This document shows, one piece after another, positions 88 through 63,999 of a DNA stretch of 64,000 nucleotides. The position numbers were made by a program, and so were the translations under genes. Origin of the DNA: a virus; the IMG/VR virus record IMGVR_UViG_3300039183_000005, positions 32,001-96,000 of that record. One strand, given 5' to 3'. The notes beneath the pieces are model-generated. The model was given only the letters and a program-made list of their open reading frames with translations, was not told where the DNA came from and searched no databases. Every line of letters starts with the position of its first letter. Positions within the stretch are counted from its first letter, which is position 1.

Positions 88-435
88 ATGACAGTTATCG
101 GAGCGACAATACCAGAGTATGATTTTTTTCCTAATGCAGCACCAGCTATTGTTGGGCAATTGCCATCTGGCCAAGTTGTTAATATACAGCTTTGGGAAAA
201 TGGTTCGCCAGTCTCTATTTCTTCTAGTGGTTGTAGTGAGATTGGCAATACTGGTAGATATACCTGGTCTACTAGTGGTATTCCAACATTATCCGCGAGT
301 AGACAACAATTTCATTGGCAAATGTCTGATGGTTCAGATACCGACGATGGTGATTTTATTTTAATTTCTCACGAAAACTATGACGGAGGTATGCCATCCT
401 TAAATGCCAAGGATACATACATAAAAAGAATTTAG
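88..435 (+). CDS. hypothetical virion protein
   Basis: AGGAGG RBS; beta-rich Ser/Gly-rich 115 aa; structural operon context. Confidence 0.6.
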   Translation: MTVIGATIPEYDFFPNAAPAIVGQLPSGQVVNIQLWENGSPVSISSSGCSEIGNTGRYTWSTSGIPTLSASRQQFHWQMSDGSDTDDGDFILISHENYDGGMPSLNAKDTYIKRI

Positions 436-444
436 GGAGACGAT

Positions 445-990
445 ATGGCTTGGAATACTGATCTAGTTTTGATAACCAGAGTTTTGATTAGCGACGTTGC
501 TACACCACAAACTTATGTGGACGAATATATTGAGAGAGTATTAATTACTGCTGGAATTATGGTTGATGCCGATTTTCCGTTTAGCTATGATTATACCTAT
601 GATATAAGCACTCTTACAATTTCTCCCGATCCAGTATTGAGCAGTGATTCTGCATTTATGGCTTTGATACCGCTCAAGGCTGCGTGTATTTTAACGCAAG
701 GTGAATTTAAGCAGGCATTGGGCCAGGGAATCAAAGTACGAGACGGAGATAGTTCTATTGACACAAGCGTAAGCTTTCGGGGTTATCGAGATATTTTAGA
801 AATGGGACCATGTGCCGCGTACGAGAAATTGAAATGGTCACTATTGGCATCTGGGGAAGCTGTGGGCGACGGTGTTGGAAAAGCCGTTCTTGGACCATAT
901 CGGTCACCAGGCAGCAATGCACTAGATACTATTTCGTGGTATTATGATCAATTTGCTATCGAAAGCAATGGCCGCAGAGATCGTATGTAA
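445..990 (+). CDS. putative head-tail adaptor/connector protein
   Basis: Size, N-terminal helical VLITRVLISD...YVDEYIERVL pattern, position first in neck cluster. Confidence 0.5.
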   Translation: MAWNTDLVLITRVLISDVATPQTYVDEYIERVLITAGIMVDADFPFSYDYTYDISTLTISPDPVLSSDSAFMALIPLKAACILTQGEFKQALGQGIKVRDGDSSIDTSVSFRGYRDILEMGPCAAYEKLKWSLLASGEAVGDGVGKAVLGPYRSPGSNALDTISWYYDQFAIESNGRRDRM

Positions 991-1019
991 TAATTTTTAG
1001 TTAATATTTGGAAGTTATT

Positions 1020-1610
1020 ATGACATATGCCAATAATAATATTAGTTTTTTTATCAACGGGTTGGAGCCCCGTCCTACTCTTTCGTGTCCTGCGCTCGAC
1101 ACAACAGCATCTATACAAATCAAGGATTCATTGATTAGAATCTATCAATCCAGAATTGATGCTCTAATTAATCAGCTTGGAAAAAATGTTTACCTAGAAT
1201 TTGATCCAATTCGTGATCCTTGTCCTAACTGTTCCTATGATGTTATTCGTGAACGATCAACCGGAATATATAAAATTGGTGGTCCAACACCATTTGCTCG
1301 TGGACGTAAATGTCCATATTGTAAAGGCCATGGTTTTACAGAAACATCAGTTAATAAATGTATTAAATGTTTGATTAAATGGAACCCCAACGATACTAGC
1401 AACTACGGACTAGCAATCGAACAAAGAAAAGGCGTAGTGCGACTTAAAACATATTTGACAGAGGCAGATGACTTAGCAAGAGCAAAGACTGTTATTGTTA
1501 ATCACGATATTGTCAATCAGATGAAATTGAGGGTGAAACTTATTCAAGGTCCAATTCCAGTTGGATTACGTGAAGATAGATATTGTATTAGTTTTTGGGA
1601 GTTGATATAA
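1020..1610 (+). CDS. putative head-closure protein with CxxC...CxxC zinc finger
   Basis: CPNC and CPYCKGHG motifs; position after adaptor. Confidence 0.45.
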   Translation: MTYANNNISFFINGLEPRPTLSCPALDTTASIQIKDSLIRIYQSRIDALINQLGKNVYLEFDPIRDPCPNCSYDVIRERSTGIYKIGGPTPFARGRKCPYCKGHGFTETSVNKCIKCLIKWNPNDTSNYGLAIEQRKGVVRLKTYLTEADDLARAKTVIVNHDIVNQMKLRVKLIQGPIPVGLREDRYCISFWELI

Positions 1611-2312: not shown

Positions 2313-2313
2313 T

Positions 2314-3264
2314 ATGAGAAAATGCTGGACGAAAAAAGAAGATGATATATTGAGAAAATACTATTTCAGTGATGGTGCTAAATATTGTTTTAATTTACTG
2401 GATAGGTCTATTGGTAGTGTTTATGAAAGAGTTAAAAAAATAAATTTGTCTAAAAAAATACCTAAATGGACGGAAGGAGAAATTAGCGATCTTAGAAAAT
2501 ACTATATTGATCATGGATCGGAATATTGCGCTCGATTGCTGAATAAACCTCGGCGATCTATTATTAAAAAAGCTTATCGTCTTAAAATTAAAACAAATAT
2601 TAACAAAGGTTGGAATAGTAATGAAGACGATATTTTATTTAAATATTATGTTCAACATGGAGCTGACTATTGTTCTAATTTATTAAATAAATCCAAAAAT
2701 AATGTTTGTGCAAGGGCTAACAAATTGGGTCTACTTTCCTGTATTACAAATGGTGGATTTCCTAAAAAACAAGTGATAGATAAAATATGTAACAATAAAG
2801 TTATGGCAATATGTAAAAAACATGGTGAAACACCACATTATTTTAGAAACGGCACAATTCAACACTGTATTAAATGTTCATCAATAAAAAATGTAGCTTA
2901 TAAAAAAGCAGAAAGAAAAACACCGTTGGGTTTATATAAAAGTAGATTACGTAATTCCTTAAATAGTGCCTTTACACGTATTTCAAAAATAAACAATACT
3001 AAAAAACACAGAGGATGTTTTAGACATCTATCATATTCACCTAGACAATTATGTAATCACTTAGAAGCAATCAGGGGGCGACAGAATAATAAGTGTCCGA
3101 TGTGTCAACAATCGTATGACTGCGTTAAGATAAGTATAGATCATACCATACCTGTCAAGATAGCCAACACAACGGAAGAAGTATTAGAGTTATTTAATCT
3201 CAGCAACTTATCTTTGTTATGTCTGTCATGCAATAGTTCTAAGGGGGCCAGCATATGTCCTTAA
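2314..3264 (+). CDS. HNH homing endonuclease with three N-terminal Myb/HTH-like repeats
   Basis: Repeats WTKKEDDILRKYY / WTEGEISDLRKYY / WNSNEDDILFKYY; C-terminal CPMC...IDHTIP...NLSLLCLSCNSSK HNH; Lys-rich and more AT-rich than neighbours. Confidence 0.8.
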   Translation: MRKCWTKKEDDILRKYYFSDGAKYCFNLLDRSIGSVYERVKKINLSKKIPKWTEGEISDLRKYYIDHGSEYCARLLNKPRRSIIKKAYRLKIKTNINKGWNSNEDDILFKYYVQHGADYCSNLLNKSKNNVCARANKLGLLSCITNGGFPKKQVIDKICNNKVMAICKKHGETPHYFRNGTIQHCIKCSSIKNVAYKKAERKTPLGLYKSRLRNSLNSAFTRISKINNTKKHRGCFRHLSYSPRQLCNHLEAIRGRQNNKCPMCQQSYDCVKISIDHTIPVKIANTTEEVLELFNLSNLSLLCLSCNSSKGASICP

Positions 3265-4187
3265 CATTCAAAGGTATAGGTGGATACGGCTATTCCGGCT
3301 ATTCTTTAACCGATCAACTTCTGTATAATTTGAAATTTTTTATCGACTGGAATCTATTAAATAATGGTGCCTATAGTATTTACGAATATAATTCAAGCAG
3401 TTGGTACGATGCAGATGAATCTAAACTACACGTTGTCCCCGACGAAAGATATGAACAAGGACGTGTATGGGAAGGTGCAGGACGCGAATGGGCATGGGAA
3501 AGTGGAGTTTCACTGGGTAGCGGTGCGGTTGATCCATTTCGTGTTTCTGGCGTATATATCGACGGAGATTTTTATCCGAAGGATTCTGCTGGCATTTATG
3601 CTCACCATGTGGATTATCTAAATGGTCGTATAATTTTTGATGAGCCAAAGAGCGTCGATGATGACATTCGTGCAGAATATACCCGCAGATCAGTTCATGT
3701 AGGATTTGCCGATGATCAAGATTTTAGAGTCATGATGTTGAATGCTGTTGAAGAATTTCTTACCGACTCTTCTACGTCTGGCACTCCGTCCAGAGAACAT
3801 CAAATTTGGCTTCCAAGTATTTTTATCGAAGTTACCACTGGTGAACAACGCGGTTTACAACTGGGCGGTGGACAAATAAAAACTAGATACGTGACTTTTC
3901 ACATATTTGCAGATAATCCGCAAGATCGCAATTTATTAATGGATTGGCTAGACTATCAAACCAGAACTGTATTTTGGATGGCTGATCTGAATAATATTAC
4001 TTTTCCATTTGATGAATATGGTGACTTGGTATCTGGTGTAACAAATTGGCCAAATATGGTATCTGCTCATCCGTGGAAACGTTTAAGGGTGATCGAAGGG
4101 AATTCAGCGGTACTAAATTCATTAAATTCTCAATTGTTTAGGGCTCGTGTGACGTGGACTGTTGAAATTGATTTTAATTTGATATAA
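3255..4187 (+). CDS. putative tail terminator/completion protein
   Basis: LPSIFIEV...GLQLGGG...FHIFADNPQDRNLLMDWL resembles tail terminator fold; directly upstream of tail tube. Confidence 0.5.
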   Translation: MSLTFKGIGGYGYSGYSLTDQLLYNLKFFIDWNLLNNGAYSIYEYNSSSWYDADESKLHVVPDERYEQGRVWEGAGREWAWESGVSLGSGAVDPFRVSGVYIDGDFYPKDSAGIYAHHVDYLNGRIIFDEPKSVDDDIRAEYTRRSVHVGFADDQDFRVMMLNAVEEFLTDSSTSGTPSREHQIWLPSIFIEVTTGEQRGLQLGGGQIKTRYVTFHIFADNPQDRNLLMDWLDYQTRTVFWMADLNNITFPFDEYGDLVSGVTNWPNMVSAHPWKRLRVIEGNSAVLNSLNSQLFRARVTWTVEIDFNLI

Positions 4188-8271: not shown

Positions 8272-8318
8272 CGATGAACAGGCGTCGTTCGTTACCTTAG
8301 TTACCGGGGGTCTTTAAA

Positions 8319-8966: not shown

Positions 8967-8968
8967 TA

Positions 8969-9556: not shown

Positions 9557-9557
9557 T

Positions 9558-43850: not shown

Positions 43851-43891
43851 TATAGTGATAAAATATATGTTTTAGAAAGGAGGTGAAAGAT

Positions 43892-45802: not shown

Positions 45803-46428
45803 TATTTTTTCCTTTCTACTGGTGTTGTTAAAGACTTTTCTACTGACCACTTACGACGAATACGACCTTTTAGAACATTGATAGGAATTCCGGTTTCTTC
45901 ACTCCATTCGACTAGAAGCTGTGTTCTATTATTATACGTTAAGTAATGATTATCTCTTCTATTCCTTGCTTGTTCTTTTTTTGTTGCCCATCGACAATTT
46001 TCTTTGCAATAATTGCCATTATTATTTATTCGATCAATTGAATGATTTTTAGTTGGACGCTCCCCAATATCATTGAGAAAATTTATAAATTTCGTCCAAT
46101 GCTTACAAACCTTAATGCCTCGACCACCATATAGATAATAATTCCTAGCATTTGGATCATTGCATCGTTGAATCATTGCCTCCCAAGACTGATAAGTTTT
46201 GTTATTTTGACTTCTGCCATGTATTGTGAAACGTTTTGATGCTTCTTTTTTCTGTACACATCCACAACTTTTAGTATGTCCACTTTTAAGATTGGAATTA
46301 AGGACAATTATTTCACTTTTATCTATACAGTTACATCTGCATAACCAACGAGTATGTCCCCATTTATTCTTCCCAACCTGTTTTATTACTTCAAGCCTTC
46401 CAAATTTTTGTCCCACTAGATCAATCAC
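45802..46428 (-). CDS. HNH homing endonuclease
   Basis: DLVGQKFGRL, WLCRCNC, KSCGC, YGGRGIKVC, SIDRINNNGNYCKENCRWAT. Confidence 0.9.
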   Translation of the reverse strand: MIDLVGQKFGRLEVIKQVGKNKWGHTRWLCRCNCIDKSEIIVLNSNLKSGHTKSCGCVQKKEASKRFTIHGRSQNNKTYQSWEAMIQRCNDPNARNYYLYGGRGIKVCKHWTKFINFLNDIGERPTKNHSIDRINNNGNYCKENCRWATKKEQARNRRDNHYLTYNNRTQLLVEWSEETGIPINVLKGRIRRKWSVEKSLTTPVERKK

Positions 46429-47326: not shown

Positions 47327-47906
47327 TTTTCATCTCCGTTAATACGAATTTCGTAAGTTTTTCTGCGTTACAATCTGATATAACATCATCACATATTTTG
47401 ATTTTAAATTCATTTTCAATTAATTCTTTGTGTGATTCATGTCTAGCAATGATTCTAACTCTCTGGTCGCAAAAAGCAGAAAGTAAATCACTTGATTCGA
47501 TGTGCGGTTTATCAATAAATTCAGGATCAAAAGCATAATGATAAACTAAAGATGCATTACTTGCCAAAGCTTCAATTGTGGTACCAATACTAGTGGTTAT
47601 CAGCGGATAATGATGCCACCTTATCAATTCAGACATACCAAAAATTGGACAAAGAGGTGGTAAACACGGTGGAATAAGATGTTGTGTAAAAATACATATA
47701 TCCAAACCAGCATAAGTGCGACACAATAAATTTATACTGTTAAGTCCCAAATATGTTAAATGTGATACGGCTAAGTGATTAAACACAAAGCCTACGACTG
47801 CTCTATCATCATTCAATTTTAAACCAAATTTTGCCATTTCTTTCGATGCTTGTTTCTTGCGATTAACGGCTTCTTTGTGTTTTGTGTTTTTTTGTTTTTT
47901 AGCCAC
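47289..47906 (-). CDS. hypothetical protein, possibly degenerate GT-B domain
   Basis: Rossmann-like alpha/beta pattern, IIARHESH; glycan cluster context. Confidence 0.4.
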   Translation of the reverse strand: MAKKQKNTKHKEAVNRKKQASKEMAKFGLKLNDDRAVVGFVFNHLAVSHLTYLGLNSINLLCRTYAGLDICIFTQHLIPPCLPPLCPIFGMSELIRWHHYPLITTSIGTTIEALASNASLVYHYAFDPEFIDKPHIESSDLLSAFCDQRVRIIARHESHKELIENEFKIKICDDVISDCNAEKLTKFVLTEMKNADRIETTDKDG

Positions 47907-48669
47907 CTTGGTTGCCCCTACGTTGAGATGTAATTTGTTTTGCCATCATTTCGCATTGAGCAATAGACTGTGATGTGGCTTGGTCTACTTCTGTTACTAT
48001 ATTATGATGTAATGGTGCCGGAATGTGATAAATTAATCCGATTTCAGATATTCTGAGTAGCAATTCATAATCATATCGGAATTGCATTTGTTCATTAAAA
48101 CCACTTTTAAGTTTTGGAAATATTTGCGGTCGCACAAAAAAATTCATATCATATGGAAAATTGGTTAACAATCTTTGCATATCAAATGAACATCTGAAAA
48201 CTCTTTCTTCCCTTCCATCTGGATAGTGATTATCACAATCACTAACAACACAAGCGATAGCCGGTTGCTGGCTACAAACATAAATAGCCTGAGATATTTT
48301 GTCCGGTGTATACCAACTTGTTGGGTCCATAAAACCAAATAGTGTTATACCTTGCCACTTCATTTGTAGAGCAATATTTAATGTATGACCAATTGTGCTA
48401 AGTTGTTTCCTAAAAATTCTTATTGGTACTCCATCTAATTCGCCATCAAATTGTGGTGGTAAACCAGTTTTGTCGTCAATTGTGATTGGTTTGGCATCTA
48501 GCAGTTTACACAATACGTCGTATGTATTATCTGTGCTATCGTTGTCGCCCACAATAATTTGGTCGGCTGGACGGATACTTTTCGTTACCGATCTAATTGC
48601 TCTTTCTATCGTCGTTGCATTATTATGAGTAGCTATGATTATACAAACCTTTTCTTTATCTTTTATCAT
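47899..48669 (-). CDS. glycosyltransferase family 2
   Basis: IIIATHNNATTIERAIRSV, IIVGDNDSTDNT, DYELLLRI. Confidence 0.85.
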   Translation of the reverse strand: MIKDKEKVCIIIATHNNATTIERAIRSVTKSIRPADQIIVGDNDSTDNTYDVLCKLLDAKPITIDDKTGLPPQFDGELDGVPIRIFRKQLSTIGHTLNIALQMKWQGITLFGFMDPTSWYTPDKISQAIYVCSQQPAIACVVSDCDNHYPDGREERVFRCSFDMQRLLTNFPYDMNFFVRPQIFPKLKSGFNEQMQFRYDYELLLRISEIGLIYHIPAPLHHNIVTEVDQATSQSIAQCEMMAKQITSQRRGNQGG

Positions 48670-49430
48670 ACCAGCCATGACTCCGCAAACAACCAGGAAA
48701 GACCCATACCAGTTTCTTCTTCTTCTATCCATAGTCTTTGTGTAAAAGATTCTTTTATTGGAGATTTCATCAATTCTTTGTATGGCATGGTAATGAATAA
48801 TCCATAATTAAGTTCTTGTGGTATAGTAGCTGTTGAACCGATCGCAAACGGAAAAGTCCAGTGAATAACACGACTAGAAACATGTTGAACCTTCCTGGCC
48901 AGTGTATGAAGATTAAATAATGTATTTCCAGCAGAAATTGCCATAAAAAATGGAGACTTAACCTGTTTGGAAACTCTTCGCAAAGTATCTCCACGTTGAT
49001 CAATAGTCTCGTGTTCACTACTGCTATCCACTACTGTTTGGATCGAATGCTTTTTGGCTTGTAAATATTGAAGTGCTAAATTTTTTCTTTCACCAAAACC
49101 AGTAGTATCCATAATAATAACTTTTTTGGCATATGGACGATACCAATTTGGACCCAATGTTTTCTCTAAGTCTCCTGCGGTGTTATGAGCTTCATCAAAA
49201 AATACCAATAAATCAAATCTCAACGCCATTTCGTCGATTACTTTCTCGTGTAATTGAGACATATCGGCAGTATTCTGTTTTTTAGCCCACTTGCGACTTC
49301 TGCACATTCGACAATAACCAGGAGCGAATACACGACCATTCTTAGAAACGCATAATTGTTTTATTGCACAGCCTTTTCCTGTATCGTCACTAACGAAAAA
49401 ACAGCAACCTTCACAACCAGTTGTTATCAT
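48666..49430 (-). CDS. hypothetical protein, Cys-rich N-terminus plus divergent GT-A-like domain
   Basis: CEGC..C..C..CRMC; cluster context. Confidence 0.4.
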   Translation of the reverse strand: MITTGCEGCCFFVSDDTGKGCAIKQLCVSKNGRVFAPGYCRMCRSRKWAKKQNTADMSQLHEKVIDEMALRFDLLVFFDEAHNTAGDLEKTLGPNWYRPYAKKVIIMDTTGFGERKNLALQYLQAKKHSIQTVVDSSSEHETIDQRGDTLRRVSKQVKSPFFMAISAGNTLFNLHTLARKVQHVSSRVIHWTFPFAIGSTATIPQELNYGLFITMPYKELMKSPIKESFTQRLWIEEEETGMGLSWLFAESWLV

Positions 49431-49907: not shown

Positions 49908-50927
49908 CTATACCCAACGACCTGCTGGACATTTTGCCACTTTCCAAAATACCCTGTTCCACTCATCAAGAAACTTTTGTTGACCGAAATTTTTCAATAT
50001 TGTTTTCCTACCGGCAGCACCAATTTCGCGAGCCATATCTTGATCTGCTATTAATTCTTGAAGTCTTTCTTTCATGGTTATTGGATCATTGGTTATAAAA
50101 CCATTAATACCATCCTCGATAAATTCTGGCATTGCAGTAGTTGCTGTCGTAACAATAGGACATCCCACAGACATAGCTTCTAGTAAGCTGAATGGAGTTG
50201 TCGACCATAAAGTTGTATTCAGAAAAACCGAAGCATGACGATAAAGTTCCCTTAGATGATCAACGTTATCGGCATTTTTTGAAAATCCAGGACTATCTCC
50301 CCATGGATTTGTTGCCAAGCCATTTGTCACTTCCTGATATAGGTCAAATCCGCAAATTCTGTTTCTTTGTGGGTAATTCCACACAGCAGTCATGACTTTA
50401 CCATCGCCACCAATCCATCCATTCCAGTAGTCAGTTTGCATACCGTGCTTTATAACCGTAATATTTGGATCATTTAAATCACGGAACCATGCTCCAACAC
50501 TGAAATCGGCCATGAAAATGTCATGATCGCACGGTAAACTTCCTATTCGTTTTATGGTTTCATCATCCCAATCTGGCCACGGTAAAGTATGTTGAGCACA
50601 TAATAGTGGACAATTAAGTTGCTGTGATAATTGAACCATTATTGGATAATGATCAATTGAATTCTGAGAAAGTACCAAATCAAAGGCGATATCAATTTTT
50701 AGTTGATCGCGGATATCTTGACCTTGCAAGACAAAGAAATTAGGTGGTAATTTTCGTTCGCTAGAATTCCATCGATGGAATTTGGGATGTTGTAAAACAT
50801 AAAAATTATGGCCTGTTTCGGCTAATGTTGCACTGTACCCCTCGTGATTGTTGGCATATAGAATATTTAGGGGACGTTTGGGGTCGCGATTAATACTTCT
50901 CAAAGCTGTGGAAAGCGGTGCGGTCAT
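49908..50927 (-). CDS. glycosyltransferase family 4
   Basis: VFLNTT...PFSLLEAMSVGCPIV...IEDGINGF. Confidence 0.9.
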   Translation of the reverse strand: MTAPLSTALRSINRDPKRPLNILYANNHEGYSATLAETGHNFYVLQHPKFHRWNSSERKLPPNFFVLQGQDIRDQLKIDIAFDLVLSQNSIDHYPIMVQLSQQLNCPLLCAQHTLPWPDWDDETIKRIGSLPCDHDIFMADFSVGAWFRDLNDPNITVIKHGMQTDYWNGWIGGDGKVMTAVWNYPQRNRICGFDLYQEVTNGLATNPWGDSPGFSKNADNVDHLRELYRHASVFLNTTLWSTTPFSLLEAMSVGCPIVTTATTAMPEFIEDGINGFITNDPITMKERLQELIADQDMAREIGAAGRKTILKNFGQQKFLDEWNRVFWKVAKCPAGRWV

Positions 50928-51112
50928 TATTCGTTCTCCCTTGGTCGTCCATGACATATAGCACGATCTGCATTGCATTGAGCACAAACATCACGACCAG
51001 CTTTTGTTTCTGAATAAATTAATGGACCAGCTATTTCTGGTGGAAGTGTACATGTTTCGGGCACATATCCTTGTTGTATCATCAATTTTTTACCTAATTT
51101 TCCCCTAAACAT
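50927..51112 (-). CDS. small Cys-containing hypothetical protein
   Basis: TAATG-coupled; CAQCNADRAIC. Confidence 0.55.
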   Translation of the reverse strand: MFRGKLGKKLMIQQGYVPETCTLPPEIAGPLIYSETKAGRDVCAQCNADRAICHGRPRENE

Positions 51113-51360: not shown

Positions 51361-52536
51361 TTATATCAAGTATTTTTTGGCTATTTGTCCAACCTTGTCA
51401 TAGCTAAATTCTGCTACACGTTTTTTAGCAGCTTCTCCCTTAATATGCAATTTTCCGTCTTGCCATTCAGAATACGCCTGCTTCATACAATAAATTAAAT
51501 GTTCTATATCTGGATCGTACCAATATTCATCCCCAGTATATAAATCTGGGAACGAATCAGTCATGCCGAAACAGGGCGTCAATTGGCCCCTTATCAGCCA
51601 TCCACAGTTAACCTCTCCGGGATATTTGAACATATGTTTTTTGGGTTCCCAATATCTAAATGCTTGTGGATAAGTAAGTTCTGGAAAATAACCCCAGTTG
51701 CTCAAAATTACCGGATTTCCAAATCCAAGACTATCAAATGCCCCTAATCCAATTGCCTCACCATGGCTGGCCGAAACAAAAACATCACACGCACGATGAA
51801 GCTGATCAAGCTTTTGATCTGGTAGAAAATCCGTGATACACACTACTGGAGGATAATGTGGATGCTTAGCATATATATGTAGTGATTTTTTCACATCTTC
51901 AATTGTTGTTTTTAATATGTTAGTCACTTCGTCTGACGTTTTGCTTGGAATATGTACCTTTAGCACAAGGGCAACATCATCTCTAATACTGAATGCTGAA
52001 TAGAATGCTCTTAAAATTGCTACAACATTTTTCCTACGATTCATTTCTCCAATAGTATAAAATACGCACTTATTTTTGAGTTGTGGTATAGATAATGGTT
52101 CTGGAGCATTATCAAACCTGGCGGTGTCACATGAACATGGAAATATTTTAACGGGTACATTTACATCACTGTCCTTGACAGCTTGCGCATTTTGTATCGA
52201 TGGTACCCATATCTCATCCATAAGATTGCAACAATGGCTCCAGTTTGATCTTTTAAAATTTGTAGTTTCGCAACAAAACAAACCTATATTTCTTACTCCG
52301 AATTTATATTCAAACATATGTGGAAGCACATGCTGTATAACTACATCAACATTATCAGTATCTTTGTTTTCAAGATGTTCTACTTTCCGTGCTAATTCGT
52401 TATTTCTGGATTGAGATAATCTAACAGCACGCGATACAACATTAATATCACCCGCCTCAAGTGCCAACATATTATGTACGGCTTGATTAGAATATCCAGT
52501 ACCGTCGCGAAGTGGTGAAATATAGCATATTTTCAT
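51361..52536 (-). CDS. glycosyltransferase family 4
   Basis: TGYS, RKN, CDVFVSASHGEAIGL. Confidence 0.9.
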   Translation of the reverse strand: MKICYISPLRDGTGYSNQAVHNMLALEAGDINVVSRAVRLSQSRNNELARKVEHLENKDTDNVDVVIQHVLPHMFEYKFGVRNIGLFCCETTNFKRSNWSHCCNLMDEIWVPSIQNAQAVKDSDVNVPVKIFPCSCDTARFDNAPEPLSIPQLKNKCVFYTIGEMNRRKNVVAILRAFYSAFSIRDDVALVLKVHIPSKTSDEVTNILKTTIEDVKKSLHIYAKHPHYPPVVCITDFLPDQKLDQLHRACDVFVSASHGEAIGLGAFDSLGFGNPVILSNWGYFPELTYPQAFRYWEPKKHMFKYPGEVNCGWLIRGQLTPCFGMTDSFPDLYTGDEYWYDPDIEHLIYCMKQAYSEWQDGKLHIKGEAAKKRVAEFSYDKVGQIAKKYLI

Positions 52537-55431
52537 TTAAATCACCGTCACATTTACTTGGTCTAGGACTTCACGCTTTAGTGATGCGAGTCGTTTTTCT
52601 TCCATTATATTCGCTTGGTGAACCATCTCCATAAAATGTTCAACAAATGCTTTTCGATCAAATGGTACACGACGATCACCAACAGTTTTCGATCCGCTAT
52701 TAAGTGATTTTAACCATTCACCGGCAAAATGCGTTTGTAACATATCGGGTCGATTCCAAACTTTACCAATAACCCAGTTTACAAATTCGCTATTGTTCAT
52801 ATTGTTATTTGGCGGAACTAAATTCGGACGATGAATACGAGGTGTCGGACATAACCAAGTAGTTTTCTGATCTTTAATGGGTGTTTCACGTATTACTTGA
52901 CCCCAAATTGCTGCTGTTCTTTCCCACCCACGACGACGCATTGGTTGGTCTTGTCCGTATGTCGGCACTAATTCTTCAGCGTATGCTCTTGTTCGTTTAG
53001 ATTTTTCCCCCCTAACAGTTTCATTTTGTTTAAGAAATTTATCTAATTTATTAGCAAAATCAATATTGCTAGGGAGAGCACGTTTTTGTTCTGTTTCTAT
53101 GATTGCCTCCCAGAAAAAACGTTCTACATCAATTGGGATACTTGTGGGACATTGAAAATAATCTTCCATAGCCGAATATTTTGGTGCAGCGACAGGAACA
53201 CCACAAGCCATTGCTTCCCAAGCTGGCATACCTGCTCCTTCGCAATTGTGCTGTAATCCTTCAAGTGTTACGTAATGATGATCATCCTCTACGTCTATAT
53301 TAACAACTTCACCACTAAAATCACTTTTTTCGCATGATTCAATTTTTACAAAAACAAATCCATCTTTATACAGGGTTTCGTGTGATTTCCGTTGTCCATC
53401 TATTCTTATTTCAAAACGATACATTGGTAATCTATTATCTCGATACGTTATAGAACAATTATAGTACCAACCAATTTTTTCTAATATTGGACCCAATAAT
53501 TTAGCAATATGCAAAGATGTTGTACTATATGTGTTGGTCCATGGTCGCTTTTTATTTTTTTGGGAACCATCTCCAGCTATCAATCCCCTTATAAGTGCTT
53601 CTTGTAATCCAGTGGGCCACAAATGGCATCCATACGGTAATTGCTTTGTATTATCCTTGTGATATAGCAGTGGTCTAAGCTGTTTCGTAAAGTCGACACT
53701 ATTAATATCAACATCCTTAGCATTTCTACCATGTTTAGTACAATCCCTAATACATCTCCGCTTTCCCATTTTATTTGCAATTTTTTGTATTTTTTCTAAA
53801 TTGATATTATCACTACCATGTAGAGTAATACGATTGTTGCCATTGCTAATATTAGCCTTGCCGTCAGCCGCAAATAATCCCAAATAGTACGCCATATCTT
53901 CATCTAAAAATGGTAGATCATAATTTGGTATAATTTCTTCTGTTGGTATGCGATTGACTAATAAATCACCTGGCTGCAATTCATCTGTTCTTTTGTATAT
54001 AAATGTGAGTTCAGGACAAGTAAATTCAGTACCGACCTGCACAGATGGAATATTTTCGAAACCAAACTCATTGGCTATTGGAACAACGATTTGTTGCTCA
54101 ATGCGGTCGGAGATACGATTGTGAAAATTTTGCATTTCTGCACTAACCATATTTTTGTTTTGATGATAATGTTCTCTGTTAACAATACTTTCTATTCCTT
54201 TGGATAGTCCAGTTCTATCTACAACCAGCCATGGATGATTATCCGTTGCCGTAATTGACCACGGTCTTCCCTTAATTTTTACATCGAAACATTTGTCGGA
54301 TGGATTTCTCATAGTCTTATAAACACGATGTAATTTACCATCCTTGCCGACAACCATATTGCCCACTTGAATATCGCCAATCGCTTCCCATCCATCCGAA
54401 GTCATAATGGGTGTGTCAGGATGCAAACAGATAGAATATTGAACGTATAGATCAAACGTTTTCATAATATCTGCTAACACATTACGTGGACATGAATGAT
54501 TTGCATTCGGTGGATGAGCAGCCAATTTTCCACATTTACGACAAACCATCATTTCACCATTGAAAAATGATGGATAGGCAGTTTGACAATTGCTACACAA
54601 ATAAGTCATAATGACCTTATTGCCAATTTTGAAATCGCGAATAGCTTTTCCTATGTCGTATCCGACATCTGGATAGCTAGTGTGAAGATAAAGGAATGTT
54701 CGTTTTGCTAATTCTAAGTGCCCCTTGGTTTTGGATTGATGGAGCCACATCGAAAATGCTTCTATTAAATCATAATACAGCTTGCGCTTTTGGTTTCGCA
54801 TGACCGTACCGACAATTAAAGAATTTGGATCAATTCCCAATCTGGCTTTATGATCCCTTTTATTTTCTGGCGGTTTAAACATTTCAAGATCAACACCAGG
54901 AGATGCTATCGTAACAAGATTTGTTCCTCGTCTGCCAGTTCTCTTTAGTAAATCCATACCATATTCAGAATATGTGAGAACACGATCGCATCGTTTATAT
55001 GTATCTAACCACAATTCTCTTTCGGGTTCTCCATCAATTGTCGGCATCCAAATAAATTTAAAATTATTGCGCAATGGCGAACGTTCAATAAATTCATCCA
55101 TCCACCAATCTCGGATCGAACAAACAATATCAGGCTTGAAATCCAAACATACATCATCAAATTTTGCTTCACCAAACTGATTTGTTGGGCTAGACATATA
55201 TTGCTGCATAGCCGCTTGATTGCTTCGAGCAGGTGCTACTGGATAAAATTTCCACGGAACTTGTTGGCAACGTGGATCATCATCGTGCGCGTAAGACCCC
55301 ATCTCAGCGCATAAAAATTCTCCAGTCGCATGTAATCGGCTAATTACTTCATTTAAATACGTGCTGAAACCAGTAGCAAGAAAACTCGCCTCACCGGTGA
55401 ATAAAACTCTACGCTTGCGATTAGACTCCAT
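52537..55431 (-). CDS. glycosyltransferase family 4 with zinc ribbon and intein
   Basis: TGFS, VMRNQKRK, DLYVQYSI/[intein]/CEGAGMPAWEAMACG; CSNC...CRKC. Confidence 0.9.
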   Translation of the reverse strand: MESNRKRRVLFTGEASFLATGFSTYLNEVISRLHATGEFLCAEMGSYAHDDDPRCQQVPWKFYPVAPARSNQAAMQQYMSSPTNQFGEAKFDDVCLDFKPDIVCSIRDWWMDEFIERSPLRNNFKFIWMPTIDGEPERELWLDTYKRCDRVLTYSEYGMDLLKRTGRRGTNLVTIASPGVDLEMFKPPENKRDHKARLGIDPNSLIVGTVMRNQKRKLYYDLIEAFSMWLHQSKTKGHLELAKRTFLYLHTSYPDVGYDIGKAIRDFKIGNKVIMTYLCSNCQTAYPSFFNGEMMVCRKCGKLAAHPPNANHSCPRNVLADIMKTFDLYVQYSICLHPDTPIMTSDGWEAIGDIQVGNMVVGKDGKLHRVYKTMRNPSDKCFDVKIKGRPWSITATDNHPWLVVDRTGLSKGIESIVNREHYHQNKNMVSAEMQNFHNRISDRIEQQIVVPIANEFGFENIPSVQVGTEFTCPELTFIYKRTDELQPGDLLVNRIPTEEIIPNYDLPFLDEDMAYYLGLFAADGKANISNGNNRITLHGSDNINLEKIQKIANKMGKRRCIRDCTKHGRNAKDVDINSVDFTKQLRPLLYHKDNTKQLPYGCHLWPTGLQEALIRGLIAGDGSQKNKKRPWTNTYSTTSLHIAKLLGPILEKIGWYYNCSITYRDNRLPMYRFEIRIDGQRKSHETLYKDGFVFVKIESCEKSDFSGEVVNIDVEDDHHYVTLEGLQHNCEGAGMPAWEAMACGVPVAAPKYSAMEDYFQCPTSIPIDVERFFWEAIIETEQKRALPSNIDFANKLDKFLKQNETVRGEKSKRTRAYAEELVPTYGQDQPMRRRGWERTAAIWGQVIRETPIKDQKTTWLCPTPRIHRPNLVPPNNNMNNSEFVNWVIGKVWNRPDMLQTHFAGEWLKSLNSGSKTVGDRRVPFDRKAFVEHFMEMVHQANIMEEKRLASLKREVLDQVNVTVI
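53245..54429 (-). mobile_element. intein with LAGLIDADG homing endonuclease (395 aa)
   Basis: N-terminal CLHPDT, block B ATDNHPW, YYLGLFAADG and LIRGLIAGDG, C-terminal VNIDV...QHN/C. Confidence 0.95.
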
Positions 55432-56008
55432 AATCACTCCGCATTAATTTAGGTCGTAAATTTTTAATCCTAGAATACCGTTGATTACGACTAAGTTCCA
55501 AATGTTCTAAATTTTCATCAAATTGTGCCTGTAAAAATTCTTTGTCTTCTGACGTAAGATCATCACATAACAAAAGATCATCAAAGACAAAAAATGGCTC
55601 AGATTCGTACGTAGGTTCTTGAAATAACATATGCCAAGGTTCGGTAAAAATAAGTCGGCGTAAATTAGCTAATTTCTCACTGGTGATATTCAATTCTTGA
55701 CATATCTCCTGTTCTGTCTTGCCTTCAGCCAATAATATTTCCAATTGATGAACTTTCTTTTTGATTCTACGTGGCGCAGATATAGTATACATAGCATCTA
55801 ATGCTGCATTTCTCATTGTATTTGCTATTGCTATAATTGCATATGCCTTTAAATTACGATGTTTTTGTTTCTTGCCACGAATCGTTGCTAATGTTAAATG
55901 CCCTATCTGTATGTAATCTTCTTCATTAGCGCAATTACTGGAATAAATAGCAGCAATTCTTTTTGCTAAGCAAACTATGAATTTATCTAAAGACTGCCAT
56001 CTTCCCAT
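55421..56008 (-). CDS. sigma70-family (FliA/SigB-like) sigma factor, divergent
   Basis: EEDYIQIGHLTL (region 2.2-like), LKAYAIIAIANTMRNA, ISAPRR, EQEICQELNIT (region 3-like), reduced region 4. Confidence 0.65.
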   Translation of the reverse strand: MGRWQSLDKFIVCLAKRIAAIYSSNCANEEDYIQIGHLTLATIRGKKQKHRNLKAYAIIAIANTMRNAALDAMYTISAPRRIKKKVHQLEILLAEGKTEQEICQELNITSEKLANLRRLIFTEPWHMLFQEPTYESEPFFVFDDLLLCDDLTSEDKEFLQAQFDENLEHLELSRNQRYSRIKNLRPKLMRSDYGV

Positions 56009-58401: not shown

Positions 58402-59229
58402 TTAAAAATTTTCGTATGCCAGAGCAATAGTCTTTAATATGCCTCCAATCTTTGGCGATAGGACCGATAACTGATAAAACAACGGTGTTTGCACAGCAGC
58501 TAAGATTTCTGGCTTATGAATTCGATAACCTCTGGCACCTTGAAGTCCTTTGATTCCACCACATTCAGCTAAACGAATATGTGTACCGTGATGGTTTGAC
58601 GTTGCGAGAGATGGCCAATATGTATCGGATAGATTGCCTGGTGGTTCTCCAAGGTCAGATTCTATAATTATTCGTAATAGTAGCTGTTCGTTAAAACCCT
58701 GTTCTGGAAAATCTATTGAACCATCTTTAAGCCTTGAACGATATTTATTTATTAGTGGCCTAATAGCTTCGAACCATTCTTTTGGCTTAATCACATGAAT
58801 TCCACCAAGTCGTCTAGGTCCGGCCTGTAGTGGACGAATAAAATTACTATATGGGATTCCCAACTCATTACAATGTGCAAGATGTTGATCCATATATGAT
58901 GGAATCTCTCGGTAAATTGCCATATCAACATCGCCGATGGACATACAATCATACTGATCGAATGATGGTTCATACACGAGCCATCGCAAGCATTTGATTG
59001 TATTAGCATCTGTATGTGTATATTCAGGAAATGCTCGTTCTCGAATTTCGAAATTGCCAGACAGCAAAGTGAGCATTTGGCGAATATTGTCCATCAAGTT
59101 TTCGTCAAGCAAAATTAATTTATGTGCCTTCGGATATGCTCGATTGAGGAAGTATAGGAACCACGGTATATATTTTTGGTATGGTTTATTAGCAACGGTC
59201 ATAAAACACATTCTACTTTCGTCAGCCAT
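58402..59229 (-). CDS. putative GT-A fold glycosyltransferase
   Basis: CLRWL...SIGDVDM DxD motif, FNEQLL. Confidence 0.55.
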   Translation of the reverse strand: MADESRMCFMTVANKPYQKYIPWFLYFLNRAYPKAHKLILLDENLMDNIRQMLTLLSGNFEIRERAFPEYTHTDANTIKCLRWLVYEPSFDQYDCMSIGDVDMAIYREIPSYMDQHLAHCNELGIPYSNFIRPLQAGPRRLGGIHVIKPKEWFEAIRPLINKYRSRLKDGSIDFPEQGFNEQLLLRIIIESDLGEPPGNLSDTYWPSLATSNHHGTHIRLAECGGIKGLQGARGYRIHKPEILAAVQTPLFYQLSVLSPKIGGILKTIALAYENF

Positions 59230-59975
59230 TAAATATTCATTGCCTTTCTAAAAATTTGTCCAATCAAAGTCGAAGAGTTCAACAATTGTTGTTCGGTCAT
59301 ATTAAGTATTGGACTGCGAGTCTGTTTAAACATTTGATGATATAACATAAATCCATATACTTCTTGTGTAGAATACTTATCAAGGCATTCTATCCCGTCA
59401 AATAAATATGCATTCCAGGAGGCAATGGGCATAATCATTTTACAGTCAAGGTGATGATACTTCTGTCCTCTGACGGCATGACGAATTACCGCTGGGCCGA
59501 GACTGCCCCACTGAAAGACATGACCTTCTGGATGAAGCTCCAACATATGATCTATATACGCCGCCGCTTTTGTGATTATCTTTCCCTTTGGTTCAGACAC
59601 CAATAAGCCACTTTCTGGCTCTCCATATTTGAGTGATGGAGATGCTGTTGCTATCAAATCTATCCCATCCCTCAATAGTTCAAACATTGGAAAAAGACTT
59701 TTGAATAGAACCAAGTCGGAATCTAGCCAGATGCCACCATGCTCTGCTAAAAGATGGTATCTTAAATAATTCGATTTATTGTTAATTTGCGCAATTTTGA
59801 AGAAACTATCTGGTATATTTGGTAGGAATTGCTTTACATTTTCTGGGGTAACCAAATAAATATCAAAATCATTCCCACAGTGTTTAGATATTATCTTCCA
59901 GCAAAGCTGGACATATGCCGGAGGTTCTGATTGTCCTGGTGGGTTTTCCCAAAATAGCCATATTGCATTTTGCAT
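59229..59975 (-). CDS. GT32/capsular polysaccharide synthesis-type glycosyltransferase
   Basis: IWLFWE, KSNYLRYHLLAEHGGIWLDSD, LGP. Confidence 0.88.
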   Translation of the reverse strand: MQNAIWLFWENPPGQSEPPAYVQLCWKIISKHCGNDFDIYLVTPENVKQFLPNIPDSFFKIAQINNKSNYLRYHLLAEHGGIWLDSDLVLFKSLFPMFELLRDGIDLIATASPSLKYGEPESGLLVSEPKGKIITKAAAYIDHMLELHPEGHVFQWGSLGPAVIRHAVRGQKYHHLDCKMIMPIASWNAYLFDGIECLDKYSTQEVYGFMLYHQMFKQTRSPILNMTEQQLLNSSTLIGQIFRKAMNI

Positions 59976-59987
59976 TACATATTCCCT

Positions 59988-60563: not shown

Positions 60564-61407
60564 GCCATTTCCTCCAATCCGTATAAACAAAACGAGCTAA
60601 AAAAACATCGTCATGTATATGAAATGCAAATTTTAATTTGGGCAATAAGCCCGTGACTTTAAGTTGCTTAAAAGCAAATTCATGATTTGACGGCACACCC
60701 TGCCTAAGAAAAGTTTCTATGTTTTTATATAAGTTACCGAATTTATCCATAATTTCAGAACCACCAAAAAACCAATAATCGGCCAGTGCTTGATAATGTG
60801 GGTTATGTGGGTATCCGATATGGGTATGATGAAGTGTCGGATCATTTTTCTTATTCCATCCGTGGAAAAACCAATCTTCGTGTCTAATGCCTTGTCCGTT
60901 TGGCATCTTCATTACACACCAATTTGATGCATAAAAATTATTTGGATCAAATTGATCGAAATGCACGTCTGTAAGCCAAGCTACATCAAATCGTCCGATC
61001 ATAACCATATCATATTTGAATCCATGCTGTTGTTCATAATTTCGCTTAAGCTTCATGCACTGATAAATACTATACCATCTAGCAATCGTAATCTGCGTTT
61101 TGGAGGTAACGCCATCGGGATAATCCTTATCGACCATACCTCCTTTAATGTTAAATTTTGGATCATGTTCAAACATAGCGTCTTTTGGATTATATGCCTC
61201 TATTAGCGATTGTTTTACTTCGATACTTGGCGTGTGCATAAATACGTCTATATCGTTATGGGCGAACAGATGCTTTTTGTAGTGTTCAAAACCCCTTTCC
61301 CACTCAACGGGCGTTCTCTTTCCTGTCTTGCCATTCCACATTTGGCCACCCACAACCTTTTTGCCGGGGTGTGAAGCCATACCGTTTAAACATAGTGCTA
61401 TTTTCAA
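60544..61407 (-). CDS. putative glycosyltransferase-associated protein
   Basis: MKIALCL.G, DVFMHT, YSI...LKRNYE...YDMVMIGRFD, DYWFFG; a family I associate with viral glycan clusters. Confidence 0.6.
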   Translation of the reverse strand: MKIALCLNGMASHPGKKVVGGQMWNGKTGKRTPVEWERGFEHYKKHLFAHNDIDVFMHTPSIEVKQSLIEAYNPKDAMFEHDPKFNIKGGMVDKDYPDGVTSKTQITIARWYSIYQCMKLKRNYEQQHGFKYDMVMIGRFDVAWLTDVHFDQFDPNNFYASNWCVMKMPNGQGIRHEDWFFHGWNKKNDPTLHHTHIGYPHNPHYQALADYWFFGGSEIMDKFGNLYKNIETFLRQGVPSNHEFAFKQLKVTGLLPKLKFAFHIHDDVFLARFVYTDWRKWHESNIP

Positions 61408-62120
61408 AACAACCTCCTTGCTGTTCCTATTCCATAATCTGGGAATTTTTCATTAATCATTTTGTCATTCACTAATTGTTTGTTGAACAAAGTTTCATCA
61501 ATTGCATCAAATACTGCTTTCGGACCTATGTGAATATTTGTATCACGCATAATAACAGTACCGAATGGTGATAAAAATTCCGTGAAACACCAATCATTGA
61601 TAGTCATTTCTATTGAATGATCACCATCAATCATAAGCAAATCTATTGTTGACATTCCAAGTTTTAACATATATTCCCGTATTCTATGTCTGAATTTGGA
61701 ATCAATAGTTATGGTGTATATGTTTTGGGCTGGATTGTTTATAGCAGAATTATCATTTATGTCGACACCAAGATACACGCAATTACAATGTTTTTCTTCT
61801 AATATGGCTCTGGTTGTTGACAATAATGGTTCTTGATATACATTTATTCCAATTTCCAATATATTTTTAGTTGATGGTAGCACTAAACTTCTTATTAGAT
61901 CGGTATGAACTTTTCTTACAGATGGTCCGTTGTGAACTAGAGGTATATTTGGTTCTATATTCGATTCAATGCACATTGGTAATCCAAAACCCTCCCCAAC
62001 ACGTGTAAACATTCTTTGCTCTTTATCGGAATACTCTGGTTCTATTGTTGGACAATATTTTAGACCATGAATTATAGATGGTTTTCTTTTCCAGTTTCGC
62101 ATCATATCTTTTTCTGACAT
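61404..62120 (-). CDS. class I SAM-dependent methyltransferase (Methyltransf_24-like)
   Basis: ILEIGI, LGVDI, IDLLMIDGDHS. Confidence 0.8.
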   Translation of the reverse strand: MSEKDMMRNWKRKPSIIHGLKYCPTIEPEYSDKEQRMFTRVGEGFGLPMCIESNIEPNIPLVHNGPSVRKVHTDLIRSLVLPSTKNILEIGINVYQEPLLSTTRAILEEKHCNCVYLGVDINDNSAINNPAQNIYTITIDSKFRHRIREYMLKLGMSTIDLLMIDGDHSIEMTINDWCFTEFLSPFGTVIMRDTNIHIGPKAVFDAIDETLFNKQLVNDKMINEKFPDYGIGTARRLF

Positions 62121-62122
62121 TT

Positions 62123-62716
62123 TTACTCCAATACTTTAAATATCTTACGTTCTTCTCCGGATGTAGTCATATCTACAAAAGAAACTACTTCACACTTTCT
62201 ATTGAATTTAGATACCCATTCGTTAAATGCCTTTTCTTCGTGATCATTAAATTCTGGATCATGTTTATAGAACCATTCATCAAAAACAATAATAGTTCCA
62301 TTTACAATGTAATCATTTAAAGTCCACAGTACTTCTTTCGCAGAACTGTAAATGTCTGAGTCAATATGTAATAATGCAATCGGCTGTGCAGTTTTCAAAT
62401 ATTCAGGTAATGTATCGGAAAACCATCCAACATAGAATTTTACACCGTCTATTTGTGGTACCTCGCCATCTGTAGAAAAATATCCAGGTGGCACAACTTC
62501 CTTTCCGTTTTTGTCAATCCATGGTTCTGGCAGACCAGCGAAAGAATCGAATCCAAACACCAGAAACGAATTATCTAGCGTCTGCCTTATGGTGCGAATA
62601 GTATCGCCCCTACAAACACCGAATTCTAAAACGTGTTTATATCGATCGTTTAATAGTGTGAGTCCATATTGCAAGCTAGAATATTTCACGACAAGACCTT
62701 TCTTTATAGATATCAA
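62123..62716 (-). CDS. TylF/MycF-like sugar O-methyltransferase
   Basis: LEFGVCRG, GFDSFAGLPE, GWFSDTL, LLHIDSDIYSS, IVFDE. Confidence 0.88.
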   Translation of the reverse strand: MISIKKGLVVKYSSLQYGLTLLNDRYKHVLEFGVCRGDTIRTIRQTLDNSFLVFGFDSFAGLPEPWIDKNGKEVVPPGYFSTDGEVPQIDGVKFYVGWFSDTLPEYLKTAQPIALLHIDSDIYSSAKEVLWTLNDYIVNGTIIVFDEWFYKHDPEFNDHEEKAFNEWVSKFNRKCEVVSFVDMTTSGEERKIFKVLE

Positions 62717-63344
62717 ATACTTTACTAAAATTAGCTAAAAATTCTTGATCTTCAGTTGAAACATCAAACGGTTTATTATTGGGCGGATGCCAGCCAACTG
62801 TTTTTGTTATTGTAAACGATGATTTTCTTTTCCATCCGAGTCGTTGTTGAACCTTATCAAGAATAACTTCTTGGTCTTTTCGCATTTGTTCATAGGTTAT
62901 GGTCAAATCTGCATACGACAACCAAAACATATTTGTTAACAACCATAATTCTGGTGGCGTTGCGAGTTGGTCCTGTATCCAACTTCTTCTTGGTTGAGAT
63001 ACTATTTTGTCATCAAAATAAATTTTGCAATCACCTGTTATTCTAGGCATTTTTCTATATGGCGTTCTTATAAAATCTGAAAAATTATTTAATTTAATAC
63101 CATTTCGTTCTCTCATTCTAAATACAGACATTAAAACGTGTTGGATATTGCGGCTACAATGAAATATATATGCTCGTCTAAATTTTTCTCGTATCTCGGT
63201 ATCAAATTTATGTCCACCAAACATATCCATATACTTTTTATATGGAGTGACGAAATTGTCAAATATAGTTTTTAGTACCCAATGTGTTCCGCTTCTTGGA
63301 TGTGTAACCAGTCGCAATCTGTCTTTCTTAAATTTTGGCTTCAT
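62676..63344 (-). CDS. PAPS-dependent sulfotransferase
   Basis: 5'-PSB loop THPRSGTHW, 3'-PB-like RN...V.MS, ITYEQM. Confidence 0.75.
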   Translation of the reverse strand: MKPKFKKDRLRLVTHPRSGTHWVLKTIFDNFVTPYKKYMDMFGGHKFDTEIREKFRRAYIFHCSRNIQHVLMSVFRMRERNGIKLNNFSDFIRTPYRKMPRITGDCKIYFDDKIVSQPRRSWIQDQLATPPELWLLTNMFWLSYADLTITYEQMRKDQEVILDKVQQRLGWKRKSSFTITKTVGWHPPNNKPFDVSTEDQEFLANFSKVFDIYKERSCREIF

Positions 63345-63999
63345 TATTAACCTCTAAAAGATTCATTAACATCAATTTTCCCAAATGAAACAACATATCG
63401 GCATATGGCTGGTGATGCAGTACTGCTATATTTAAATAAATCAAAGCAGTTAAAACTTCTACTTTATGAAAATCATAGTGATTTTTTATGAGATATTTAC
63501 GAAACCAGGCTTCGCAATCAATAAGCGTTTGTCGCCTAAGTAGATCAAAATTAACTATATTACCATCTACATTAGCTTTATATAAACCATTGCGTATGAT
63601 ACCATGCGCAACAATTAGACCATGCCGCAATTTGGCCAGATCATAGTATATATCTCCGTAACCTATAAGACCACCAAAATTTTGTCGCCAGTCTAGCAGC
63701 TTAAAATCATTACCAGTATCTATTGTATTTTCAAAATGTAAATCACCGTGAAATCTTACTGGAATACCTTCCGATATCCATTTCCAGTTTACGCTATTGA
63801 GTAATTCTTTTATTGGTGGAACAACAACACTATTAATACATTGTGATGAATCTCTGCGACAAAATCGTTCAAAATATTCCCGTACTCGCCGAAATGTTTT
63901 GTCTTGATAAAATTTACGGTAGATTTCTCTTACTTCGACGGTAAGAAGTTGTCGATCTTCCCATAAACCTTCCAACCATTCTAAAAAGTCTTTAAATCT
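63328..63999 (-). CDS. APH/choline-kinase-like phosphotransferase domain (5' partial)
   Basis: FHGDLHFEN, LLDWRQ, GDIYYDLAKL; frame open to window edge. Confidence 0.8.
   Translation of the reverse strand, partial: RFKDFLEWLEGLWEDRQLLTVEVREIYRKFYQDKTFRRVREYFERFCRRDSSQCINSVVVPPIKELLNSVNWKWISEGIPVRFHGDLHFENTIDTGNDFKLLDWRQNFGGLIGYGDIYYDLAKLRHGLIVAHGIIRNGLYKANVDGNIVNFDLLRRQTLIDCEAWFRKYLIKNHYDFHKVEVLTALIYLNIAVLHHQPYADMLFHLGKLMLMNLLEVNNEAKI

Follow-up and report, generated by a model that had tools for sequence, protein, structure and literature searches.

We analyzed a stretch of 64,000 nucleotides (the window below, always meaning the whole stretch) covering bases 32001-96000 of IMG/VR record IMGVR_UViG_3300039183_000005, a 168,332-bp uncultured phage genome with 37% GC, in which tail and fibre proteins rich in the dipeptide Ser-Gly (SG) are encoded near a group of glycosyltransferase (GT) genes. 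The tail module lies on the plus strand, and from about 45.3 kb the minus strand carries replication genes mixed with genes for sugar enzymes. Upstream of the window, the genome encodes an intein-bearing GDP-mannose 4,6-dehydratase (GMD), the large terminase, the portal, a cement-like protein, the major capsid protein and a giant protein of 1526 amino acids (aa). The phage is a long-tailed siphophage, as judged by the fold match of its tail tube, and has a tape measure of 1680 aa. A preliminary description of this DNA had proposed that SG is a sequon for a phage-encoded O-glycosylation pathway that coats the virion in a methylated and sulfated glycan, by analogy with animal proteoglycans. The observation behind this proposal is confirmed: the SG excess is a real feature of these proteins.

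SG was tested protein by protein against 2000 composition-preserving shuffles. All earlier hand counts were reproduced within one, and the enrichment survived in the 2216-aa giant (z = 9.9), the 1164-aa protein (z = 5.8) and the tail tube (z = 3.5) (p <= 0.001), and was marginal in the 216-, 310- and 211-aa proteins (p 0.006-0.03). These are six of the eight proteins initially named as SG-rich; the 115-aa protein was not significant (p 0.2), and in the 180-aa protein GS was as frequent as SG. The controls chosen in the preliminary description held, namely the tape measure and the hub-like protein (Table 1), the ligase (1 SG for 3.6 expected; identity confirmed by Pfam) and one DnaE half (1 for 2.5). 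For pooled statistics we used seven SG-rich proteins, the six above and the 1526-aa giant encoded just upstream of the window. In this set Ser precedes Gly 2.83 times as often as expected, the next best residue reaching 1.24, and SG outnumbers GS by 163 to 57 (binomial p 5e-13). GS, NG, DG and TG are not enriched, TG being depleted (observed/expected ratio, O/E, of 0.48), and S-G O/E is 1.10 in the rest of the genome, cytoplasmic enzymes included. The excess is directional and Ser-specific, and its dispersal over unrelated proteins is as first described: it occurs in unrelated families and is spread along the length of both giants, at 2-4x in most 200-aa segments, with several segments, among them the YWTD beta-propeller of the 1526-aa protein, at only about 1.3-2.7x.

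Simpler origins were considered and rejected. Local co-enrichment of Ser and Gly is not supported, GS not being enriched, and a DNA-level cause is at odds with the codons: the serines of SG use both codon families (TCT 42%, AGT 33%) and the glycine codons are the same as elsewhere. The giants share repeat segments, and the 2216-aa protein combines a YWTD beta-propeller (Pfam Ldl_recept_b) with short SG[ND]L[FY][IV].G repeats; this fibre repeat was discarded as the sole source of SG, since it holds only 10-12 SG per giant, about a fifth of their total. Internal domain duplications in the giants carry SG along. Separately, TCA is almost unused for Ser before Gly in the seven proteins (4%, against 25% elsewhere), perhaps because AGG(A/T), which resembles a Shine-Dalgarno sequence, is avoided inside genes.

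Table 1. Virion proteins, controls and sugar-enzyme genes of the phage (window coordinates unless marked genome; SG and GS, dipeptide counts; G numbers, genomes of the lineage)
Feature	Position (strand)	SG	GS	Expected SG	Matches and occurrence
GMD	genome 14098-16242 (L001:98-2242), upstream of the window, just before terminase				LAGLIDADG-containing insertion; 714 aa vs 336-368 aa in relatives
1526-aa giant	genome 27495-32075, just upstream of the window	43		14.9
115-aa protein	88-435	3	2	1.6
310-aa conserved protein, directly 5' of tail tube	3255..4187 (+)	6	1	2.1	no Pfam or PHROG match
Major tail tube, 372 aa	4268..5386 (+)	12	7	5.0
180-aa protein	18902..19444 (+)	4	4	1.1	no directional excess
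Tape measure, 1680 aa (internal control)	21969..27011 (+)	6		8.8	Pfam PhageMin_Tail 1.6e-19
2216-aa giant fibre-like tail protein	27022..33672 (+)	66	20	22.9
800-aa hub-like protein	35426..37828 (+)	2		4.2
211-aa small tail protein	39661..40296 (+)	5	3	2.0	paralogue of 43883-44533
1164-aa non-repetitive tail protein	40308..43802 (+)	22	6	7.5
216-aa small tail protein	43883..44533 (+)	9	5	4.0
301-aa protein beside GT genes	46421..47326 (-)				no Pfam match; 12/12 genomes
GT2, accessory	47899..48732 (-)				Pfam Glycos_transf_2 1.8e-9; G000 subclade, weak homologues in G010, G012
GT4, lineage core	49908..50987 (-)				Pfam Glyco_trans_1_4 1.8e-15, 57.9 bits vs cut-off 27; 12/12 genomes
GT4, lineage core	51361..52536 (-)				Pfam Glycos_transf_1 3.7e-8, 33.5 bits vs cut-off 26.4
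Large GT4, core, intein-interrupted	52537..55437 (-)				22.8 bits vs cut-off 26.4 here; orthologues pass
GT32-type (Caps_synth / DXD), accessory	59229..59975 (-)				Pfam 7.2e-12; only G000, G002, G007
Two methyltransferases	61404..62716 (-): 61404-62120 and 62123-62716				first weak, second TylF-type; no homologue in other 11 genomes
Sulfotransferase-like, accessory	62676..63344 (-)				Pfam Sulfotransfer_1 E 4e-4, 20.3 bits vs cut-off 22; only G000, G007

To place the excess in its lineage, we compared 12 whole genomes (G000 being the genome analyzed here), whose core proteins are 36-76% identical to those of this genome and none of which is free of GTs. The tube has more than 3700 homologues, of which the top 120 average 8.6 SG for 3.6 expected, with 7-8 sites conserved. 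Homologues of the 1164-aa protein were taken from a protein database (17 sequences, conservation being computed on 16 at 49-86% identity), a scan of IMG/VR with this protein having found no locus, and every member of the family has 16-26 SG for 7-10 expected. Orthologues of the 310-aa protein have 3 SG for 2.1 expected (G002), 5 for 3.0 (G005) and 8 for 2.1 (G003), and those of the 216-aa protein 9 for 3.4 (G002) and 7 for 3.0 (G005). The excess recurs in giants of the relatives that are not homologous to those described here: 90 SG for 33 expected and 56 for 23 in G005, 83 for 37 and 72 for 18.6 in G011, 84 for 32 in G013, 97 for 37 in G015 and 42 for 12 in G010. In the three genomes where they were counted, none of capsid protein, portal, terminase and hub is enriched in SG, the major capsid protein having 0-1 SG, and the same goes for the tape measure, except that of G005 (2860 aa; 30 SG for 21.0 expected). 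G014 has a weak excess. G003 and G012 have whole-genome SG O/E values of 1.01 and 1.29 and no more SG-rich proteins than chance, their largest proteins including ones with 39 SG for 37.4 expected, 15 for 15.7 and 14 for 14.6; the conserved small proteins of G003 still bear SG by descent. We regard the SG excess as a real inherited lineage feature of exposed beta-rich tail and fibre proteins. In the virion region of the SG-neutral G003, a 981-aa protein (G003:C1:110855-113800, L125) has 94 GS and 15 SG, and looks like a Gly-Ser-X, collagen-like repeat. A query of 50,697 cultured or deposited phage records with the tube protein, 20 kb of window DNA, the 1526-aa giant and a core GT4 returned only two weak partial GT matches, so that we found in them neither a cultured relative nor an independent lineage with the same GT4.

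The surroundings of the SG sites resemble those of a turn. At position -1, Pro, Ala and Val are enriched 2.1-3x, and the fraction of hydrophobic residues rises to 0.43-0.47 at -3 and at +3 to +5 (baseline 0.335), so that SG tends to be flanked on both sides by hydrophobic segments that are probably beta. Of the 22 SG sites of the 1164-aa protein, 12 show no variation at all within its family and about 17 are close to invariant, with Ser conserved at 63% in SG against 41% for other serines. Where the Gly is kept at homologous sites of this family, the dipeptide is SG 214 times, NG 13, DG 13, GG 12 and TG 6. The preliminary description had itself named beta-turn preference as an explanation that would undo a sequon, and the varying sites point that way: as read from these alignments, exchange of Ser for Asn, Asp or Gly before Gly is the behavior of a turn position, unlike the exchange of Ser and Thr often seen at O-glycosylation sites. 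Structural models were obtained with AlphaFold2 (AF2) and graded by their predicted local distance difference test (pLDDT). For the tube (pLDDT 74), Foldseek matched the SH-Ab15497 major tail protein, the T5 tail tube and tip, DT57C and the P74-26 tube (E 3e-8 to 1e-4, probability 1.00), all pointing to a duplicated tube-domain fold, and we identify this protein, by its predicted structure, as a tail tube with the duplicated fold of T5 pb6 and P74-26; its SG dipeptides are placed at strand ends or in hairpin turns. The model of the 1164-aa protein, built from 17 sequences, was poor (pLDDT 48.6) and we assigned this protein no fold; the secondary structure of the model, taken as a weak hint, has the conserved PSG at 422, 585 and 1033 between paired strands.

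Our leading, though still tentative, reading is that the SG excess is a structural turn idiom of beta-rich tail and fibre proteins, because the substitutions are turn-like, the context is strand-turn-strand, conserved proteins inherit the sites by descent, and the excess is dissociated from the GT core, as described below. [P/A/V]-S-G would form a tight turn or strand edge between two beta-strands, in which Gly would adopt a backbone conformation tolerated by Gly alone and Ser would occupy a small polar capping position that is filled by Asn or Asp in other proteins. The motif would have been passed on by descent in conserved proteins (tube, 310-aa and 216-aa proteins) and multiplied in the fast-evolving giant fibre proteins, which would be built of many short strand-turn-strand units. 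The GT genes would then be a separate matter, with GMD and three soluble GT4 as core genes of the lineage. Statistics, conservation, substitution pattern and gene distribution are direct observations; from them we infer the geometry of the turn and the absence of a modification. The arrangement recalls known turn motifs (type I turn with G1 bulge, Asx/ST-turn, x-P-[D/N/S]-G), with which it shares Pro at -1, Gly at +1, exchange among Ser, Asn, Asp and Gly, and the position between strands.

Several observations weigh against this reading. In turns of ordinary proteins it is Asn and Asp, not Ser, that dominate the position before Gly, whereas here N-G and D-G stay near 1.0-1.2 while S-G reaches 2.8, in virion appendage proteins alone and in one lineage. 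The excess covers at least five unrelated protein families yet is confined to virion appendage proteins and absent from the enzymes of the same genome. A generic turn preference does not produce this pattern, since phages T5 and T4 show no SG excess: S-G O/E is only 1.24 in T5 virion proteins, the T5 tube pb6, which shares the fold of the 372-aa tube, has 3 SG for 2.6 expected, the T5 L-shaped fibre pb1, of equal Ser and Gly content, has 15 for 15.3, and the T4 long tail fibres gp34-37 have 24 for 25. The hub-like protein, so called from its gene position, has a reversed asymmetry that we noticed post hoc, its orthologues over three genomes (this one, G002 and G005) totalling 5 SG for 16.7 expected and 21 GS; SG could be avoided there because a modification, or such a turn, is unwanted. 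The structural reading describes a Ser preference specific to a lineage and a compartment, and does not explain its origin.

One origin that has been considered is selection for chemical durability in long-lived extracellular particles. Asn-Gly is prone to deamidation and Asp-Gly to isomerisation, and NG and DG turns may have drifted to the inert SG. In line with this, N-G and D-G O/E are lower in the SG-rich proteins (0.99 and 1.17) than in the rest of the genome (1.17 and 1.26), T5 virion proteins (1.27 and 1.23) and T4 fibres (1.39 and 1.37), and SG swaps with NG and DG at homologous positions. However, the decrease is small beside the 2.8-fold gain of SG, the seven proteins still contain 43 NG and 50 DG and so do not avoid them, and durability accounts neither for the SG-less hub, tape measure and capsid protein nor for G003 and G012. 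We consider it very improbable.

The sugar enzymes themselves were characterized by Pfam scans of 20 of the 21 proteins of the minus-strand cluster (all but the partial DnaE half at 63328-63975). That the phage encodes its own glycosyltransferases is borne out, five GT genes in the window passing or approaching Pfam cut-offs (Table 1); the figure of about 14 glycan enzymes given initially comes down to about eight, the remainder of these being two methyltransferases and one weak sulfotransferase. The latter has an N-terminal HPRSGTHW loop, which we take to resemble the PKSGTTW motif that binds 3'-phosphoadenosine 5'-phosphosulfate (PAPS). Relatives of the GT4 at 49908..50987 occur on at least 80 IMG/VR contigs, and that at 51361..52536 has a weak sequence match in the Protein Data Bank (PDB) to the chlorovirus protein B736L; PDB sequence searches with the three GT4 otherwise gave generic donor-domain matches only. 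The large GT4 is interrupted by an intein of about 380 aa (Hint and LAGLIDADG), giving a protein of 966 aa where G002 and G005 have 585 and 562 aa, and several relatives seem to carry an insertion too, judging from open-frame lengths of 904-967 aa. Two sugar-pathway genes of one phage, those of GMD and the large GT4, host inteins. The cluster proteins were free of transmembrane segments, and we saw no flippase, polymerase or oligosaccharyltransferase in the set, so that the enzymes, if they act on protein, would do so directly in the cytoplasm. A search of the 168-kb genome for PF01075 (GT9-type heptosyltransferase) gave nothing at E <= 0.01. A sugar modification of DNA was considered and is unsupported, as neither a ThyA-like hydroxymethylase nor a tRNA-guanine transglycosylase (TGT) or DpdA was found.

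These enzymes lead to a second reading, possible though doubtful, in which the serines of SG turns would be acceptors of a direct, cytoplasmic glycosylation without lipid carrier, carried out by the soluble GT4 with a GDP-6-deoxyhexose supplied via GMD and yielding glycan-coated tails and fibres. The enzyme would recognise a strand-turn-strand context, as autotransporter heptosyltransferases do, and the GT2, GT32, methyl- and sulfotransferases would vary the glycan by strain. The excess has the traits that such acceptors might have: it is Ser-specific, directional and confined to exposed appendage proteins, is absent or reversed in the tape measure, hub, capsid protein and portal of three genomes and absent from T5 and T4, and recurs in non-homologous giants of distant relatives (G005, G011, G013, G015). 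GMD, the three GT4 and the 301-aa protein belong to the roughly 28 genes common to all 12 genomes, this GT core being as conserved as capsid and tail genes, and the universality of GMD and the GT4 would suggest an acceptor of the phage's own and not one of a particular host. The Atlas clusters nearest the large GT4 are GT4 clusters that are 88-100% viral. The lack of membrane and lipid-carrier enzymes in the cluster, and of the genes that would point to DNA glycosylation, fits this reading as well, and virion glycosylation in mycobacteriophage Che8 and the action of TibC on TibA are precedents.

The distribution of the genes speaks against it. The preliminary description proposed to test whether SG enrichment co-occurs with the GT cluster, a link that the genomes do not back: the core is present in 12 of 12, and G003 (221 kb) and G012, which are not sister branches, keep GMD and all three GT4 without SG excess. 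The GT2, GT32, methyl- and sulfotransferase genes are largely confined to the G000 subclade and absent from the most SG-rich genomes (G005, G011, G013, G015); a methylated or sulfated coat is likewise unsupported, the methyltransferases occurring in 0 of the 11 other genomes and the sulfotransferase only in G007. Over the 12 genomes the presence of none of the glycan enzymes follows the SG excess. Just two families occur in all SG-high genomes and are missing from both G003 and G012, a ClpP-like protease (genome 8510-9223, minus strand) and a dCMP deaminase (genome 107281-107835, minus strand), both encoded outside the window and shared by the ten genomes that show any SG excess at all, a correlation that is probably coincidental. 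In addition, the sites are strongly conserved and exchange with Asn, Asp and Gly rather than Thr, the major capsid protein is nearly devoid of SG, and SG is not scarcer than expected in the phage's cytoplasmic enzymes, so that recognition would need more than the dipeptide. We rank glycan acceptance second because nothing ties the enzymes to SG. It is nonetheless compatible with the structural turn idiom, as an enzyme could recognise just such turns, in the way that TibC does on TibA.

The dissociation of SG excess and GT core in G003 and G012 would also be expected if the GTs act off the virion, on host envelope polymers, a small molecule or phage DNA, with SG reflecting another modification or interaction of Ser (phosphorylation, acylation or recognition by an assembly factor). 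Relative to the structural genes, the GT genes are on the other strand, in the midst of replication genes and between those for the single-stranded DNA-binding protein (SSB) and the DnaE halves, and among proteins of solved structure those nearest the GT4 act on teichoic acid, bacillithiol or lipid-linked sugars, both of which agree with an off-virion role. We nevertheless hold it to be unlikely: no enzyme for another Ser modification co-varies with SG, neither a hydroxymethylase or DpdA for sugar modification of DNA nor membrane-anchored or lipid-carrier enzymes were seen, and one would not expect every genome to keep a host-directed role across so deep a divergence (core proteins 36-42% identical).

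Known glycosylation systems resemble the phage only in part. With the animal proteoglycan attachment site the likeness is the SG dipeptide alone, and the analogy drawn in the preliminary description does not hold: the acidic fraction within four residues on either side of SG is 0.084 for a baseline of 0.113, SGxG accounts for 5 of 163 sites (GSG for 13 of 163), and a xylosyltransferase-type family is missing, the scanned cluster proteins containing GT2, three GT4 and GT32 only and none of GT14, GT7, GT31 or GT43; the animal setting is the Golgi, whereas that of the phage is cytoplasmic. Autotransporter heptosyltransferases act in the cytoplasm, before export of their substrates. One of them, TibC, heptosylates many serines in short loops of the folded, repetitive beta-helical surface protein TibA (PMC4358343). 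The phage would share with these systems (TibC and AAH, acting on TibA and AIDA-I) soluble enzymes and the strand-loop-strand context of the sites, which in the phage is deduced from sequence, but TibC is a GT9-type, iron-containing dodecamer using ADP-heptose, whereas the phage has GT4, GT2 and GT32 with a GDP-mannose dehydratase and no GT9. Among mycobacteriophages such as Che8, the tail tube is reportedly one of the modified proteins. In mycobacteriophage Che8, according to a summary of that work, phage-encoded GTs glycosylate the capsid protein, giving the particle a glycan shield (Freeman et al. 2023, Cell Host Microbe 31:1216, summarised in PMC11256854). As far as the summary describes it, the likeness lies in phage-encoded GT genes outside the structural module and the target is the capsid protein, whereas here the capsid protein lacks SG and the candidates would be the tube, fibres and small tail proteins; the phages are unrelated.

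The remaining genes of the window provide the context. PHROG and Pfam gave no match for most tail proteins. Between the tail tube and the other tail genes lie about 13 kb of non-structural genes (5996-18721, plus strand), including an NAD-dependent DNA ligase, a phosphoribosyltransferase, an RNA ligase and a protein with a thrombospondin type 3 repeat. The head and tail modules host HNH or homing-endonuclease-like genes with helix-turn-helix domains, at 2305-3264 (plus strand) and, upstream of the window, at 25713-26960 of the genome. At the start of the minus-strand block, 45329-45850 has a weak match to Whirly-like single-stranded DNA-binding proteins (E 1e-3, below cut-off). DnaE is split into two genes, at 56514-58361 and 63328-64000 (both minus strand), the latter running past the end of the window. 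The halves enclose seven sugar-related or unknown genes (58402-63344), a cassette found only in G000, G002 and G007.

It is conceivable, if rather unlikely on present evidence, that a virus-specific set of three GT4 hyper-glycosylates [P/A/V]-S-G turns of the tube, fibres and small tail proteins, as a new sequon-like system in widespread uncultured siphophages of about 170 kb, one that would parallel the autotransporter heptosyltransferases with unrelated enzymes. If the serines are modified, SG would be the first glycosylation signal on phage particles that can be read from sequence, and would give a function to the core GTs of a phage lineage that is very abundant in the environment, with bearing on the protease resistance of virions, their sticking to surfaces and their hiding from receptors. 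If they are not, SG would represent a clean, lineage-specific structural dialect in beta-rich fibre proteins, by which exposed tail proteins of this clade could be recognised, and a caution against inferring sequons from composition alone. Either way, the acceptor of the universal set of GMD and three GT4 is a testable question.

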